The notes: generated by a model not told the origin, from the sequence alone. Numbered from the stretch's first letter, positions 6-4,287 are shown. The stretch is 4,287 nucleotides of DNA from a virus (IMGVR_UViG_2547132274_000008:1-4287), one strand, 5' to 3'. Numbers and translations: made by a program.

Positions 6-581
6 ATGATGCAAATTAAAAAAATCACCAGTCCCCGCTACACCGAGTCCGGTGCGATTGACTGCGACGTGCTGTTTGAAGGAATGGAAGACCCGCTTCC
101 GTACACAGCCACGCCAGAAGACACCGCGACGACAGGTCAGCAAATCTGGCAGGAACTGCAAAGCGGCAAATGGGGAGAAATCGCCACGTTCACTGTCACG
201 CCGGAACTTATCGCCGCGGCGAAGGATGCCAAAAAACGAGAAATCGAGCTCTGGCGCACAGAACAGGAAGCGCAGCCGTTCACGTTCGAATGGAACGGTC
301 ACGCCTGGAACGGCGGTGCAGACTCAATAAGTCGTATTGCGCCTGTGGCAATGGCTGCAAAGGTGGCAGGTACGCGGTCAACGCTTGGATGGGGGGATGC
401 AGCAAATAACCTTGTCACACTGACAATGGCGCAGATTCAGGAGCTGGCAGCCGCGATGGCACAGGCGCAGATTGATCGCAATGACGAGATTTATCGCCGT
501 CAGCGACAGATGAAGAACGTGCTGGATAGCCTTAATAATCTTGCCGACATCCGCGCTTTTCAGGCTGGAGAGTCAGAATGA
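6..581 (+). CDS. Putative phage tail-fibre assembly / tail assembly chaperone-like protein (DUF4376-like C-terminal block); function tentative
   Basis: 191-aa ORF with ATG at 6 and a second in-frame ATG at 9. Codon usage is enterobacterial-like, with G/C-preferred third positions (acg, gcg, ccg, ctg). Its TGA stop overlaps the next start (ATGA at 578-581). The C-terminal segment WGDAANNLVTLTMAQIQELAAAMAQAQIDRNDEIYRRQRQMKNVLDSLNNLADIRAF resembles, from memory, the conserved C-terminal block of DUF4376 tail-fibre assembly/chaperone proteins. Only 5 nt precede the ATG and there is no in-frame stop in them, so the true start and RBS may lie upstream of the window. Confidence 0.7.
   Translation: MMQIKKITSPRYTESGAIDCDVLFEGMEDPLPYTATPEDTATTGQQIWQELQSGKWGEIATFTVTPELIAAAKDAKKREIELWRTEQEAQPFTFEWNGHAWNGGADSISRIAPVAMAAKVAGTRSTLGWGDAANNLVTLTMAQIQELAAAMAQAQIDRNDEIYRRQRQMKNVLDSLNNLADIRAFQAGESE
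567..572 (+). promoter_or_regulatory. Shine-Dalgarno site (GGAGAG) for the ORF starting at 578
   Basis: GGAG core at 567-570, 7 nt upstream of ATG 578, inside the 3' end of ORF1. Consistent with translational coupling. Confidence 0.55.
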
Positions 582-1291
582 AATGGGAAAAGGCAATTCT
601 GCGCCCGTCAGCCATGAACATTAAATGCTCTGTGGTTTGCCTTCATCCATGGTCAGAAAATACCGGAAACATCAAACCATCGGGGCGTTATCTCAGCCCC
701 GAAAATGCTGTATCTGCACTTTTACCCTATCTGAAAGAAAGCACAGAAAAAGACATTGTGGCGCTATTGTTTTGCGCTCCTTCTGCTGGCGAGTTTTTAT
801 CACTCGCCAGGCAATTTTCAGGCGCATTTCCATTGCCAGAGGTGGGGCGAATGTCCCGCATGATTTCCAGTCAACTTTCACTGGCCATCAGCAGAATGCA
901 AATCCCCGCCAGACCGGCAACATCACTTCCGGAACCGATAATGCTGTCGACACAGACCACTCGCAGCATGTCGCTGGCAGCAACCATTGCACAGGCAGCC
1001 ACTCCTGCCGCCACATCACCGGAAACATTGTCATCATCGCTGCATCAGTTCATGAATGCGAGAGATAAAGCCTTGCAGGAAATCGCTGATCAGCAGGCCG
1101 CACTCCGGCAAAAATTTTGCCCGGTGTGGCGCTTTTGCTACAAGGGAGCCCTTAGCCAGGCTGCAGTGCTGATACAAAAAAACATCCCACACCCCGAGTG
1201 GGTTTTTACAGCTGTGATGCTGTTCGTCGGCGATAATCTCTCATCACTAAGGGGAGCACTACATGACCCAGATGATTGTCCTTGCGCTTGA
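578..1291 (+). CDS. Hypothetical protein, Ser/Ala/Thr/Pro-rich with a low-complexity central region; no recognisable family
   Basis: 237-aa ORF. ATG 578 overlaps the ORF1 stop (ATGA) and has a GGAG RBS at good spacing. Its 3' end overlaps the ORF3 start by 29 nt. Codon usage is noticeably poorer than its neighbours (several AGA/AGG/ATA/CTA/CGA codons), and the central segment SQLSLAISRMQIPARPATSLPEPIMLSTQTTRSMSLAATIAQAATPAATSPETLSSS is low-complexity. Kept as a CDS because of the RBS and the operon packing, but it is the least certain of the four. Confidence 0.5.
   Translation: MKWEKAILRPSAMNIKCSVVCLHPWSENTGNIKPSGRYLSPENAVSALLPYLKESTEKDIVALLFCAPSAGEFLSLARQFSGAFPLPEVGRMSRMISSQLSLAISRMQIPARPATSLPEPIMLSTQTTRSMSLAATIAQAATPAATSPETLSSSLHQFMNARDKALQEIADQQAALRQKFCPVWRFCYKGALSQAAVLIQKNIPHPEWVFTAVMLFVGDNLSSLRGALHDPDDCPCA
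1249..1256 (+). promoter_or_regulatory. Shine-Dalgarno site (AAGGGGAG) for the ORF starting at 1263
   Basis: Strong purine-rich SD 6 nt upstream of ATG 1263, embedded in the 3' end of the preceding ORF. Confidence 0.6.
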
Positions 1292-1838
1292 CGGGGAAGC
1301 CATTCTGCTGCGCAACATCACCGTCAGCGCCACCATGCAACTACCGGACAAAGATATGTCCGGACAGTCAACCAGCACCACGAGCGCCCAGCAGGGAAAC
1401 AAGGCTAAAGAGCTGCGCGTGTCGGGGGTTATTGATTTTAACGATGAAGCTATTCTGACCCGTATTTTTCAGCTTGCGGAGGCAACAGAAAGCAACGGTG
1501 CCAAAAAAACATATCGCATTGCTAACGCTACCGCGAAGGCAATCAATATGCGACAGGGGGTGTTTTCTGGTGGCATTGATGCCACGGAACAACAGGGAAA
1601 AATGCACTGGCAGATCACCTTTACTCTCAGGGAAAAATTAAGCGTGCCAGAGAAAGCATCCGCACGCAGCGGTTCGCAGAAAACCATCGCCAGACAGCAG
1701 ACCCAGAATGGCAGCGAACAGGTACCAGACAAAGGCATGAATACGCAAAGTTCGTTCTGGAAAAAAATCAATGATGCCGTTGGCTCTGGTCTGGATGCTG
1801 TTGGCATCGGGAGCGTGAAAGAGGAAGGGAAAACATGA
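1263..1838 (+). CDS. Hypothetical protein (191 aa); no recognisable family
   Basis: ATG 1263 is preceded by a strong SD (AAGGGGAG, 6-nt spacer). Codon usage is typical of enterobacterial coding sequence. The TGA stop at 1836-1838 overlaps the next start (ATGA at 1835-1838). The protein is hydrophilic and Q/S/T/K-rich, with no motif I can assign. Confidence 0.7.
   Translation: MTQMIVLALDGEAILLRNITVSATMQLPDKDMSGQSTSTTSAQQGNKAKELRVSGVIDFNDEAILTRIFQLAEATESNGAKKTYRIANATAKAINMRQGVFSGGIDATEQQGKMHWQITFTLREKLSVPEKASARSGSQKTIARQQTQNGSEQVPDKGMNTQSSFWKKINDAVGSGLDAVGIGSVKEEGKT
1821..1830 (+). promoter_or_regulatory. Shine-Dalgarno site (GAGGAAGGGA) for the ORF starting at 1835
   Basis: Purine-rich GGAAGG/AGGGA run 4-6 nt upstream of ATG 1835. 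Confidence 0.55.
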
Positions 1839-3532
1839 AATTGATACAACGCTGCATGATTAATGGCGAACGGGTGGAAATTGCCGATATAAGCCTTGTT
1901 CTTACCCTGAATGCTGCCGGTCGTGGCTTCATTTCTGTTAACAATCTGTCACCCGAACACAGCCTTGCCGGCGCAATGGTACAAATTGATCTCGGCCGTG
2001 ACGGTGAAGCATGGCGCTATTTCTCCGGCTACATTGAGCGCGATCAACCTGCTGAAAATGGCTCACGTCGCCTTTTTATTCGTGAAGCGGCTGCTGTGCT
2101 GGATTTTGATTTCCCCTGCTCCATGCAACACCCGACGTTGCGGGGGGTACTCGATAATCTGGGGCGACAAAGCGGTATCGTTTTTATCACTCCGGATGCG
2201 GATTATGCCAGTATACCAACTCCCTACATCACCCACAGCGGCAGCGGAGCACAACTGCTCAGCCAACTGGGGCGAGCATTCAGTATCAGCGATTACGTCT
2301 GGCACCCTATGCCGGACGGTTCTGTATTTGTGGGAAGCGCAGCTGATTCACGATTTGCCAGTATTACAATGCCGGATATTCCGCAACAGTACACACTCGG
2401 GCAAAGCGGCGGAAACAGCATCGACATCATGTTTATGGAAACTGTGCGACCGGGCGTGAACCTACCGGCCGGGCGCATTACCCGTGTAGCCCTCAACAAC
2501 GAGAAAATGACCCTGACATGGGAGCGCCTTACCGCCACGGGTAACCCTGTTTCCAAATCACCATTACGCAGACAAATGGAAACACAGTTCCCGGAACTGG
2601 CCAGCGGTACGCTACATACCCGGCTGGCGCGCGTCATTGCGCCAACGGAGCCCACCACCCTGGGCGATGTGGCCGACAGTTTCCGCCCACGCTACGCCGT
2701 CGATGTGCAGTTGCTTGATGAGAACGGCAACGATAAAAGCGATACGCCCGTTTACCCGGCAGTACCGCTCCCCGTCCCCATGGCTGGCAGTGAGGCGGGA
2801 TGTTTTGCCTACCCGCCGGCTGGCACCATCGTGGAAATATCCAACATTGAAGGACGACCGGATAAACCTGTCATCAGGCAAATCTTACCCGCTGGTCATA
2901 ACCTGCCTGATGTAAAGCCCGGCGAACAATTGCAACAACAGCGCGCAGAAGTGTTTCAGCGTGTCACGACTGACGGAAGCTGGCACAGAGAAACCGACCA
3001 GCAAATCAGGGAGCATTCAGCCAGGCGAACCATTAACAGCGATCAGGAAGAACGCACAACAACAACCAGAACAACAACAGTACAGGCAAACGACATAACC
3101 AGCGTTCTGGGAACCAGCAAGCTGATGACAGGTCAGACAGAACACATTACTACTGGCCATTATGCGATCGCAGCCGGTGAGCATATCCAGATGGTAGCGC
3201 AGGATTTGCTGACTAAACTCAAAGGGGCGACATCCACCATCGAGCATAACCTCACCGAAAACGTGGGAGGCCGCAGAACATGCCGGGCGGACGGCGGCCT
3301 GGAATTTACCGCCCCGACTGTATTTATTGGGCGCGGTGGCTCACGGGAAAAATCCGGACTTAATCTGCTGACGTTGTTGATTGATATTCTGGATCTGGTT
3401 CAGTTGCTGGCCACACACACTGCAAACCACACCCACAGCAACACTGGCGCACCAACAAACAGCAGCGAACTTGCCGCAGACGCCCAACAGGCTACGAGCC
3501 TGCGCGAAAAATACGGCGACCTTATCGCCTAA
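1835..3532 (+). CDS. Hypothetical large protein (565 aa); possibly a phage structural spike/baseplate-like protein or a novel accessory protein; function unassigned
   Basis: Longest ORF in the window. ATG 1835 is coupled to the upstream stop and has an SD. Codon usage is good throughout. The TAA stop at 3530-3532 is followed about 40 nt later by a hairpin with a T-tract. C-terminal features include a Thr-rich stretch ERTTTTRTTTV, a segment with glycines every 7-8 residues (SVLGTSKLMTGQTEHITTGHYAIAAGEH) and the His-rich motif ATHTANHTHSNTG near the end. The embedded overlapping ORFs on both strands are treated as shadow ORFs. Confidence 0.75.
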   Translation: MKLIQRCMINGERVEIADISLVLTLNAAGRGFISVNNLSPEHSLAGAMVQIDLGRDGEAWRYFSGYIERDQPAENGSRRLFIREAAAVLDFDFPCSMQHPTLRGVLDNLGRQSGIVFITPDADYASIPTPYITHSGSGAQLLSQLGRAFSISDYVWHPMPDGSVFVGSAADSRFASITMPDIPQQYTLGQSGGNSIDIMFMETVRPGVNLPAGRITRVALNNEKMTLTWERLTATGNPVSKSPLRRQMETQFPELASGTLHTRLARVIAPTEPTTLGDVADSFRPRYAVDVQLLDENGNDKSDTPVYPAVPLPVPMAGSEAGCFAYPPAGTIVEISNIEGRPDKPVIRQILPAGHNLPDVKPGEQLQQQRAEVFQRVTTDGSWHRETDQQIREHSARRTINSDQEERTTTTRTTTVQANDITSVLGTSKLMTGQTEHITTGHYAIAAGEHIQMVAQDLLTKLKGATSTIEHNLTENVGGRRTCRADGGLEFTAPTVFIGRGGSREKSGLNLLTLLIDILDLVQLLATHTANHTHSNTGAPTNSSELAADAQQATSLREKYGDLIA

Positions 3533-3570
3533 TCACCGGGCATAAAATCCACATAAACGCCCCATCACGC

Positions 3571-3596
3571 AACGCACGGTTCAGGCCGTGCGTTTT
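3571..3596 (+). terminator. Candidate rho-independent terminator for the four-gene operon
   Basis: Inverted repeat AACGCACGG (3571-3579) / CCGTGCGTT (3586-3594) with loop TTCAGG, followed by TTTT (3593-3596) then CAT. The T-tract is short, so this is a moderate-strength terminator at best. Confidence 0.45.
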
Positions 3597-3655
3597 CATA
3601 TCTGCCACCTGATTAATGCGTTCTGCGTGCCATTCCGGCGCTGTATGCGCACACC

Positions 3656-3693
3656 ACGTAAACGGTGTGACGTAAAGCGTGAGGTGACGTAAA
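3656..3693. repeat. Three direct repeats of ACGTAAA (two extended to GTGACGTAAA)
   Basis: ACGTAAA at 3656-3662, 3669-3675 and 3687-3693. The second and third copies share the longer unit GTGACGTAAA (3666-3675 and 3684-3693). Read directly from the sequence. Confidence 0.6.
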
Positions 3694-3799
3694 CCGCGCT
3701 ACCCCCTCCAACCCGCGGGTTTTGTCTCGAAACACTTTTTCAGTTTTCTGCCGTGCAAAAATGACCGCCAGCCCGCGCAGCAACTGAGGGAAAAGCGAA

Positions 3800-4057
3800 G
3801 ATCTGAAATTTCACGTTTTGAAATTTTTTGCAGTTTTCAGAGGGATTTTTACGATCTCATGAATGGCAAGAGAAAGAAAACAGGCTGATATTAAAAGAGT
3901 TTTTATACTTTACGTGGGACAAGACACGATCGCGAAAGGATCGCGTTAAACAACCCTCAAACAAAGAAGCCCGACGTAGCGCGGCCTGCGCAAAATCAAG
4001 AGTCAGAATTAAACTGAAAAAAGGATCAATACCGCGCCTCGATCGCACATGACGATC
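3800..4057. other. Dense cluster of GATC (Dam methylation) sites in non-coding DNA
   Basis: By manual count, GATC occurs at 3800, 3853, 3928, 3939, 4024, 4041 and 4054, which is 7 sites in 258 bp. The preceding roughly 3.8 kb holds 8 sites (474, 1088, 1613, 1988, 2042, 3041, 3166, 3392). Confidence 0.6.
3804..3813. repeat. Perfect 10-bp palindrome TGAAATTTCA with an adjacent TGAAAT half-site copy
   Basis: TGAAATTTCA at 3804-3813 is its own reverse complement. An additional TGAAAT lies at 3819-3824 within an A+T-rich stretch. Operator-like, but no cognate regulator is identifiable. Confidence 0.5.
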
Positions 4058-4074
4058 TACGCAGCAACAGGACG

Positions 4075-4097
4075 AAAAAAACCGGCGCGAACGCCGG
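4075..4097 (-). terminator. Rho-independent terminator on the minus strand
   Basis: Read on the minus strand: stem CCGGCG, UUCG tetraloop, stem CGCCGG, followed by seven T (plus-strand A-run 4075-4081; stems at 4082-4087 and 4092-4097). A GC-rich stem, a classic stable tetraloop and a U7 tract make a textbook intrinsic terminator. Confidence 0.65.
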
Positions 4098-4138
4098 CGG
4101 AAGCATGTATCAAATGCGTGACTGAATAATGTCTGCGG
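4075..4138 (-). ncRNA. Candidate small RNA (about 60-65 nt) between a minus-strand promoter and the minus-strand terminator
   Basis: A sigma70-like promoter on the minus strand (see 4145-4174) would start transcription near plus coordinate 4137-4139, and the strong terminator ends at about 4075. The predicted transcript is 5'-CGCAGACAUUAUUCAGUCACGCAUUUGAUACAUGCUUCCGCCGGCGUUCGCGCCGGUUUUUUU-3'. This is purely a sequence prediction; I do not recognise it as a known sRNA. Confidence 0.2.
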
Positions 4139-4144
4139 TCGGGA

Positions 4145-4174
4145 ATTTTACATCAGAAGGCTGATAAGTCTCAA
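4145..4174 (-). promoter_or_regulatory. Candidate sigma70 promoter on the minus strand (-35 TTGAGA, 18-bp spacer, -10 TAAAAT)
   Basis: On the minus strand, TTGAGA (plus 4169-4174) and TAAAAT (plus 4145-4150) are separated by 18 bp. Each hexamer matches consensus at 5 of 6 positions. Confidence 0.3.
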
Positions 4175-4178
4175 CGGA

Positions 4179-4208
4179 TTGAAACAAGGGAAAAAACCAG
4201 GCTAGAAT
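4179..4208 (+). promoter_or_regulatory. Candidate sigma70 promoter on the plus strand reading out of the window (-35 TTGAAA, 18-bp spacer, -10 TAGAAT)
   Basis: TTGAAA at 4179-4184 and TAGAAT at 4203-4208 with an 18-bp A-rich spacer. The predicted start is near 4215 and the target gene would lie beyond the window end. It sits back-to-back with the minus-strand promoter candidate. Confidence 0.3.
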
Positions 4209-4287
4209 TCGCGCGGGTGCCTTTCGGCTGATGGCTGGAGGGTAAACCCGAAGGCCGGATGTGGAAAGGCCCCGAGTCAACTTTAAC

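Follow-up and report, generated by a model that had tools for sequence, protein, structure and literature searches.

The closest described relatives of the three-gene segment analysed here, positions 578-3532 (ORF2, ORF3 and ORF4) of the viral DNA IMGVR_UViG_2547132274_000008:1-4287, are orf33, orf34 and orf35 of phage HP1. In work on the Pseudoalteromonas phages ACA1 and ACA2, in which an HP1-like phage was annotated with HHpred and virion mass spectrometry (MS), orf35 was equated with a fusion of P2 gpD and gpV and orf34, tentatively, with gpU (PMC10612066). The same study matched ACA1 gp46 to HP1 orf33 and found it in virions by MS (2 spectra, 6% coverage), matched gp47 to orf34 and described it as of 'similar size and syntenic position to P2 gpU', and divided orf35 between two proteins: gp48, which matches its N-terminal domain and P2 gpD (HHpred identity to gpD 10%), and gp49, which matches its C-terminal domain and the P2 gpV spike, pdb 3QR8 (PMC10612066). 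MS in a paper on phage PV94 identified the tape measure and one baseplate protein only, and a literature search by HP1 and K139 orf numbers and by UniProt and Pfam accessions yielded nothing useful on these genes. Based on our analysis of the whole 4,287-nucleotide stretch (the window), we conclude with a probability of roughly 0.9 that positions 578-3532 form the far end of the late (tail) operon in a chromosomal, HP1-like Peduoviridae prophage of Escherichia, and that the trio encodes the central, inner part of a contractile-tail baseplate. Four lines of evidence carry this conclusion, namely the family memberships, the fixed synteny, the fold of ORF4 and the absence of another hub or spike gene in the prophage. 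What we infer is where exactly ORF2 and ORF3 sit and in how many copies, that ORF4 is a trimer, and that its HxH motif binds metal. The features of the window are listed in Table 1.

Table 1. Features of the window, in order of position
Feature	Coordinates	Strand	Description	Basis
ORF1	6..581	+	DUF4376 protein linked to tail fibre; last fibre-module gene before the trio	Pfam, PHROG
ORF2 (237 amino acids)	578..1291	+	HP1 orf33 / K139 orf37 family (phrog_1677 / phrog_31292); putative minor virion or baseplate-associated protein	PHROG
ORF3 (191 amino acids)	1263..1838	+	HP1_ORF34 'baseplate complex protein' family; in gpU's P2 position, directly before the hub gene	Pfam, PHROG
ORF4 (565 amino acids)	1835..3532	+	Predicted baseplate hub joined to the central spike; counterpart of HP1 orf35 and of P2 gpD and gpV in one chain	VgrG/Pvc8/Afp8-like architecture
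ORF4 residues 1 to ~240	1835..2554	+	Predicted hub domain, T4 gp27 / Mu gp44 / P2 gpD fold	
ORF4 residues ~260-442	2612..3160	+	Predicted gp5/gpV/VgrG-type OB domain and beta-helical spike region; boundaries approximate	
H532-T533-H534 codons	3428..3436	+	Conserved HxH motif near the spike C-terminus	
Terminator-like hairpin	3571..3594	+	Closes the late operon	RNA fold; K139 terminator just after orf39

Families and fixed position of the three genes

The three proteins belong to families that HP1 and K139 share. ORF2, ORF3 and ORF4 match PHROGs 1677, 1398 and 2258 (4.7e-39, 2.7e-64 and 1e-232); their genes lie next to each other on one strand, in the order of HP1 orf33/34/35 and K139 orf37/38/39, whose products fall in the same three PHROGs. 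ORF3 is a secure member of the Pfam family HP1_ORF34 (PF25759), which it matches at 2.5e-53 and 180.8 bits (cut-off 27) over model positions 2-177 of 180, and all 35 of 35 ORF3 homologues match this family as well. The PHROG matched by ORF4 is annotated as 'baseplate protein', and the two matched by ORF2, phrog_1677 and phrog_31292, are both annotated as function unknown. RefSeq names on close homologues include 'baseplate complex protein' and 'type VI secretion system Vgr family protein'. Several GenBank phage records give homologues of ORF3 or ORF4 unsupported product names ('adenine glycosylase', 'nucleoid DNA-binding protein', 'DNA-binding protein', 'head completion protein').

To place the trio in its neighbourhood, 80 IMG/VR loci and 80 GTDB loci were fetched with an ORF3 profile, and every open reading frame (ORF) of these 160 loci was scored with hidden Markov models (HMMs) of the three families and of reference tail proteins. 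ORF2 was directly upstream of ORF3 in 152 of the 158 loci with room for it, the six misses being due mostly to over-long ORF3 calls, and ORF4 was directly downstream of ORF3 in 144 of 145. On the same strand and no more than 10 kb upstream we found gpJ and gpI (127/130 each), gpW and the tape measure protein (125/130 each) and a fibre gene (129/130). The most frequent arrangement was sheath, tube, tape measure protein, gpW, gpJ, gpI, fibre, (Tfa), ORF2, ORF3, ORF4, which puts the trio at the distal end of the tape measure-gpW-gpJ-gpI-fibre cluster of a P2/HP1-type phage. Using tblastn, relatives of ORF3 and of ORF4 were each found in 75 sequenced phages, all of them HP1-like Peduoviridae, from Haemophilus, Pasteurella, Vibrio, Aeromonas, Pseudomonas, Pseudoalteromonas and enteric hosts.

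Chromosomal prophages in 48 complete E. coli genomes match the window along its entire length at 92-97% identity, and in two E. coli loci (L001 and L002) the surroundings form a full P2/HP1-type prophage. Its head side comprises an Ogr/Delta regulator, portal, terminases, scaffold, P2-family capsid and head completion protein, followed by gpR, gpS, sheath (DUF2586), tube (HP1 Orf24 family), holin, endolysin, tail chaperones and tape measure, and then by DUF2590 (gpW-like), Baseplate_J, Tail_P2_I, fibre, Tfa, a second fibre, DUF4376, ORF2, ORF3, ORF4 and the end of the late operon. The order tape measure protein, gpW, gpJ, gpI, fibre, Tfa, ORF2, ORF3, ORF4, end is common to HP1, K139 and the E. 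coli prophages; in HP1 and K139, Tfa is followed by orf33/34/35 or orf37/38/39 with the same small overlaps and then by a terminator. A Pfam scan gave each of the other tail proteins of the prophage another role (gpR, gpS, sheath, tube, chaperone, gpW, gpJ, gpI, Tfa, fibres) and found no hub or spike among them. A contractile tail requires both, which leaves ORF4 as the sole candidate for hub and spike.

These results bear on an earlier reading of the window, the sequence-only reading, which had found that none of the three proteins resembled a nameable family and had offered, besides phage cargo, an undescribed tail-tip or baseplate module as an explanation. The first statement is contradicted by the matches to PF25759, to phrog_2258 and, for ORF2, to PHROGs of unknown function. 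In the second, the baseplate module stands, but it is not undescribed, since it corresponds to HP1 orf33-orf34-orf35 (PMC10612066) and its identity is already known. That reading had also proposed profile searches, structure comparison and a survey of gene neighbourhoods; these returned PHROG families for all three proteins and a Pfam family for ORF3, a hub-spike fold for ORF4 by Foldseek, and a fixed place next to tail genes in nearly all of the loci scored. It had named conserved virion structural proteins at a fixed position in tail clusters as an outcome that would count against its proposal, and this is essentially what we observed.

ORF4 as the probable hub and spike

We next consider the structure of ORF4, which was modelled with AlphaFold2 as a monomer from a 27-sequence alignment. 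Residues 1-240 were predicted with a local confidence score (pLDDT) of 75-94, the OB region with moderate confidence and the needle poorly, which is expected because a single chain of a trimer was modelled alone; long beta-hairpins predicted at residues 383-422 have pLDDT below 50. Foldseek returned full-length matches (E 7e-18 to 4e-13) to spikes of extracellular contractile injection systems (eCIS), namely those of an Anabaena contractile injection system, AlgoCIS, Pvc8 and Afp8, and to VgrG of the type VI secretion system (T6SS). The VgrG and Pvc8 matches extend across the OB region, and structure comparison recovered the gp27 / gp44 / gpD hub fold at the N-terminus. By sequence, PDB searches gave marginal matches only (VgrG, Pvc8, T4 gp5). 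Pfam matches of ORF4 itself were weak (Phage_base_V at residues 310-347, Gp5_trimer_C at residues 393-442); across the family, Phage_base_V was matched by 27 of 27 members (best E 4.1e-5), with weak matches to Gp5_trimer_C in 15 of 27 and to Gp5_C in 9 of 27. Based on the model, ORF4 is predicted to be a compact VgrG-like hub-spike fusion, an identity that was reached from the fold independently of the ACA1/ACA2 annotation and that leads to the same conclusion.

The C-terminal part of ORF4 contains the HxH motif listed in Table 1. H532 and H534 are invariant in the family alignment, and in 45 of 47 family representatives the motif is within the last 60 residues, 34-42 residues from the C-terminus. 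P2 gpV offers a parallel in LHTHKH at residues 194-199 (H195, H197 and H199). In the structures of gpV and phi92 gp138, the HxH motif reportedly coordinates iron at the spike tip. By analogy, the motif of ORF4 may bind metal, and ORF4 probably forms a trimer. Predicted alpha-helices at residues 511-530 and 543-564 flank the motif with pLDDT up to ~80 (residues 511-565, window positions 3365-3532); P2 gpV ends shortly after its HxHxH, and we identified no counterpart for the helical extension of ORF4.

T6SS VgrG proper was considered and rejected as an identity for ORF4. The VgrG models TIGR01646 (19.1 bits, cut-off 121.8) and TIGR03361 (16.1 bits, cut-off 186.35) fall far below their thresholds and the gene is in a prophage with head genes, which indicates that ORF4 is not a T6SS VgrG. 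Hub and spike are encoded by separate genes in some HP1-like phages, such as ACA1 (gp48/gp49; locus L166, 15689-17319), and tblastn gave two-piece matches to ORF4 in Vibrio, Pseudoalteromonas and Pseudomonas phages, which indicates that the fusion is variable within the HP1-like lineage. A PHROG of the split-gene, spike-only form, phrog_4011, matches ORF4 residues 243-559.

ORF3 and ORF2, probable partners of the hub

It is the position and size of ORF3 that point to a gpU-like, tube-proximal role for this protein. Direct and profile searches gave no PDB sequence match for ORF3, and the published HHpred match of an orf34-type protein to gpU, at 15% identity, was called 'uncertain' (PMC10612066). 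An IMG/VR scan for a diverse gpU profile returned only copies 98-100% identical to P2 gpU.

The family of ORF2 comprises 141 clusters at 50% identity, mostly of 230-300 amino acids. A Pfam search matched no entry and showed no similarity to known chaperone families, PDB sequence and profile searches gave noise only, and no solved baseplate protein matched the predicted structure, an alpha/beta core into which a long helical segment is inserted. Among 162 family members not one Cys or His position is conserved, which argues against an enzyme. ORF2 homologues were found by tblastn in 18 phage records, compared with 75 each for ORF3 and ORF4, which suggests that ORF2 evolves faster than its neighbours. 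When enlarged ORF2 and ORF3 profiles (42-60 representatives) were compared by hhalign with the tube, gpW, gpI, gpJ and ORF4 families of the phage and with each other, all probabilities were below 2%, which leaves a tube-like or wedge-like origin of either protein unsupported. In one protein, P0302 (527 amino acids), the ORF2-family domain (residues 309-523) follows an N-terminal domain of ~300 residues with fibre/adhesin-like repeats rich in Ala, Gly and Thr (AAGGLTTAITLDGDA...), an arrangement that hints at a structural setting for the family.

We judge ORF2 most likely to be a low-copy partner, in the baseplate or in its assembly, that is peculiar to HP1-like tails. Alternatively, ORF3 and ORF4 could be structural and ORF2 an assembly factor that is absent from the virion or binds only transiently, such as a chaperone of the hub-spike or of fibre attachment to the baseplate. 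The location of the gene between the fibre-assembly and hub genes would suit such a factor, as would the rapid evolution and unmatched fold of the protein, and the two spectra that represent its homologue in ACA1 are a very weak signal; that homologue was nevertheless seen in purified virions, the fusion in P0302 suggests a structural context, and the family resembles no known chaperone. We regard an assembly factor as the less likely reading, albeit a serious one, also in the form of a chaperone alone. A more specific proposal, to which we give somewhat less than even odds, is that ORF2 is a real baseplate component of the HP1 lineage, with a fold absent among solved structures and a possible role as a bridge from hub to wedge. 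ORF2 could replace the LysM protein (gpX / T4 gp53) that forms this bridge in other contractile tails, and ORF2 and ORF3 would in that case characterise a separate, minimal type of inner baseplate, centred on a compact ~240-residue hub fused to the spike.

Several observations weigh against assigning the trio to the inner baseplate in this way. For ORF3, none of 35 family members matches Pfam GpU (PF06995) even at E<=10, and hhalign gave the ORF3 profile a probability of 1.8% against the phage's own tube family and 0.1% against P2 gpU, a single-sequence target with a low effective sequence number and little power. ACA1 gp47 was not detected by MS, and the authors called the homology to gpU uncertain (PMC10612066). 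For ORF4, the match of the window protein to Phage_base_V reaches 15.7 bits against a cut-off of 23.8, that to Gp5_trimer_C is also below the gathering threshold, and the beta-helix and C-terminal parts of the model have low confidence. Furthermore, the literature searched contained no experimental work on this particular prophage. The N-terminus of ORF4 showed no sequence homology to gpD (hhalign 0.2% against the single P2 gpD sequence, no match to Pfam Phage_GPD), and all family profiles scored below 0.3% against single P2 gpD, gpV and gpU sequences; these comparisons are uninformative because single-sequence targets with few effective sequences have little power.

In the mechanism that we propose for the baseplate module, the ORF4 hub would sit beneath the tail tube and nucleate the wedge proteins (gpW-, gpJ- and gpI-like) encoded just upstream. 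The C-terminal part of ORF4 would form an OB domain and a beta-helical needle of the gp5/gpV/VgrG type, tipped by the conserved HxH apex motif, and the protein would act as a trimer like its solved structural relatives, so that sheath contraction would drive the spike through the host envelope. ORF3 may serve as a hub-proximal adaptor or tube-initiator-like protein in place of P2 gpU, and ORF2 as a low-copy structural or assembly partner of the hub complex that is specific to the HP1 lineage.

Gene layout, flanks and known systems

The genes are tightly packed. All three are on the plus strand in a six-frame ORF list and in the raw sequence; start and stop codons overlap as ATGA at 578-581 and at 1835-1838, and ORF2 and ORF3 share 29 nt at 1263-1291. 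Purine-rich sites that resemble Shine-Dalgarno motifs lie 4-9 nt 5' of each ATG (GGAGAG at 567-572, GGGGAG at 1251-1256 and GAGGAAGGGA at 1821-1830). The start of ORF1 likewise overlaps the stop codon of the upstream fibre gene (ATGA at 6-9), which indicates that coupling is a trait of the whole late operon and no mark of a separate cassette. The 29-nt overlap has the identical length in 109 of 152 related loci, a count based on longest-ORF calls that may in part be an artefact. Downstream of ORF4, a 10-bp hairpin followed by UUCAU folds at -16.6 kcal/mol (z -3.18; 0 of 200 shuffles as stable); its weak T-run kept it from being called by a simple terminator scan, and K139 has an annotated terminator at the equivalent position, just after orf39. 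In these respects the sequence-only reading was accurate: its coordinates, its three overlaps and a Shine-Dalgarno site for each gene agree with what we found, and the terminator that it placed 3' of the trio corresponds to the hairpin.

ORF1, which that reading had called Tfa-like, matches Pfam DUF4376 (2.3e-13) and phrog_1141 'tail fiber protein' (2.6e-81). It is thus associated with fibres, but it is not a canonical Tfa (Caudo_TAP); a gene of that family lies two genes upstream of ORF1 in the prophage. ORF1 follows a second, tail-collar fibre gene in the E. coli prophage, and only 6 of 130 loci had a DUF4376 gene upstream of the trio. The E. coli prophage carries two fibre sets, a fibre with Caudo_TAP Tfa and a tail-collar fibre with DUF4376 (L001, 16524-20532), compared with one in HP1 (L003) and K139 (L004).

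The resemblance of ORF4 to secretion machinery raises the possibility that the module is part of a tailocin or an eCIS instead of an infectious phage, with ORF4 as a VgrG-type, effector-carrying spike. The best full-length structural matches of ORF4 are indeed eCIS spikes and T6SS VgrG, and one RefSeq genome labels it a T6SS Vgr family protein, but in the E. coli loci the tail genes are accompanied by a complete P2-type head module (portal, terminases, scaffold, capsid), by lysis genes and by an Ogr/Delta regulator, homologues are present in 75 sequenced phages, and no T6SS or eCIS core genes are nearby, which makes a tailocin or eCIS very improbable. Least credible of all is the explanation that the sequence-only reading had favoured, a moron for anti-phage defence or superinfection exclusion expressed from the prophage: ORF2 has no Pfam family and the trio sits 3' of fibre and fibre-assembly genes, a known moron site in P2-like phages (e.g., P2 fun(Z) after gene G), but this account is refuted by the synteny (in 144-152 of ~150 loci from many genera, and in HP1 and K139, the three genes occur side by side in an unchanged order), by the fold of ORF4 and its standing as the phage's sole hub/spike gene, by PADLOC-DB (no match for ORF3 or ORF4, only a noise-level Cas6 match for ORF2, E 0.05), by a promoter scan without any promoter-like site within 578-3532, and by a guanine-cytosine content of 0.48-0.60 that is continuous with the flanks, without a compositional break. 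What might be taken for a moron is near-universal, fixed in position, free of promoter-like sites inside, typical in composition and translationally coupled to late genes that precede it.

True accessory cargo of the prophage seems to lie downstream of the trio. The ~750 bp 3' of ORF4 (3533-4287) hold no RefSeq gene; both E. coli prophages have an annotated toxin gene of the Hok/Gef family ~75 nt beyond the end of the window, and their flanks diverge only beyond that gene. Rfam gave only sub-threshold matches in the window, among them one to sok at 4215-4287 that is weak and truncated (E 0.19) and did not recur at the gathering threshold on the longer locus L001. On the minus strand, a strong terminator-like hairpin, GCCGGCGTTCGCGCCGGT followed by T7, is located at 4098-4081, beside divergent promoter-like sites (minus strand 4174-4145, plus strand 4179-4208) that each match at 10 of 12 positions. 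Judged from the sequence, the elements at 4081-4208 could belong to a short minus-strand transcript and a hok mRNA promoter. The E. coli prophage is located at different chromosomal sites in the two genomes, near topB/gdhA and near flk/fabB, and although it is chromosomally integrated, ParM and a plasmid partitioning/stability gene are present upstream of its head genes (L001, 1-1454; L002, 1-1327).

Taken together, these results indicate that this block of three coupled genes, which looks orphan and follows a fibre-assembly gene, belongs to the core tail machinery and is not to be counted as a candidate defence island. Beyond correct annotation the relevance is small, and wrong GenBank labels on homologues propagate. 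The compact, VgrG-like hub-spike fusion of HP1-like phages may be a useful small model of the central baseplate, and the orf33 family (ORF2), and less so the orf34 family (ORF3), is still without an assigned place in any solved baseplate.

Among known systems, HP1 orf33-35, K139 orf37-39 and ACA1 gp46-49 share with the trio the same three PHROGs, their order, the small overlaps and a place at the end of the late operon after fibre/Tfa. HP1 orf35, over most of its length, is 42% identical to ORF4 residues 1-441 (78% of ORF4), and HP1 orf34 is 47% identical to ORF3 over residues 5-130. In contrast to the HP1 type, the E. coli prophage adds a fibre gene and a DUF4376 gene before the trio, and its ORF2 is shorter (237 amino acids compared with 258 and 297) and only a distant relative. 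The equivalent of ORF4 is two genes, hub and spike, in ACA1 and some Vibrio and Pseudoalteromonas phages. Compared with P2, in which hub and spike are encoded in separate operons, the two are fused here, the hub domain has ~240 residues whereas gpD has 387, no LysM gpX-like protein is present, ORF2 has no P2 counterpart, and hhalign against the single P2 sequences detects no similarity to gpU, gpD or gpV. In phage Mu, gp44 (hub) and gp45 (spike) are likewise separate, with identity of ~15%. ORF4 differs from VgrG and eCIS spikes in its context, a phage with head genes, and in the C-terminal helical region that flanks HxH, with no effector domain evident. Like ORF4 as modelled here, however, T6SS VgrG, Pvc8, Afp8 and AlgoCIS Alg8-type proteins combine a gp27-like hub, a gp5-like OB domain and a beta-helix in one chain.

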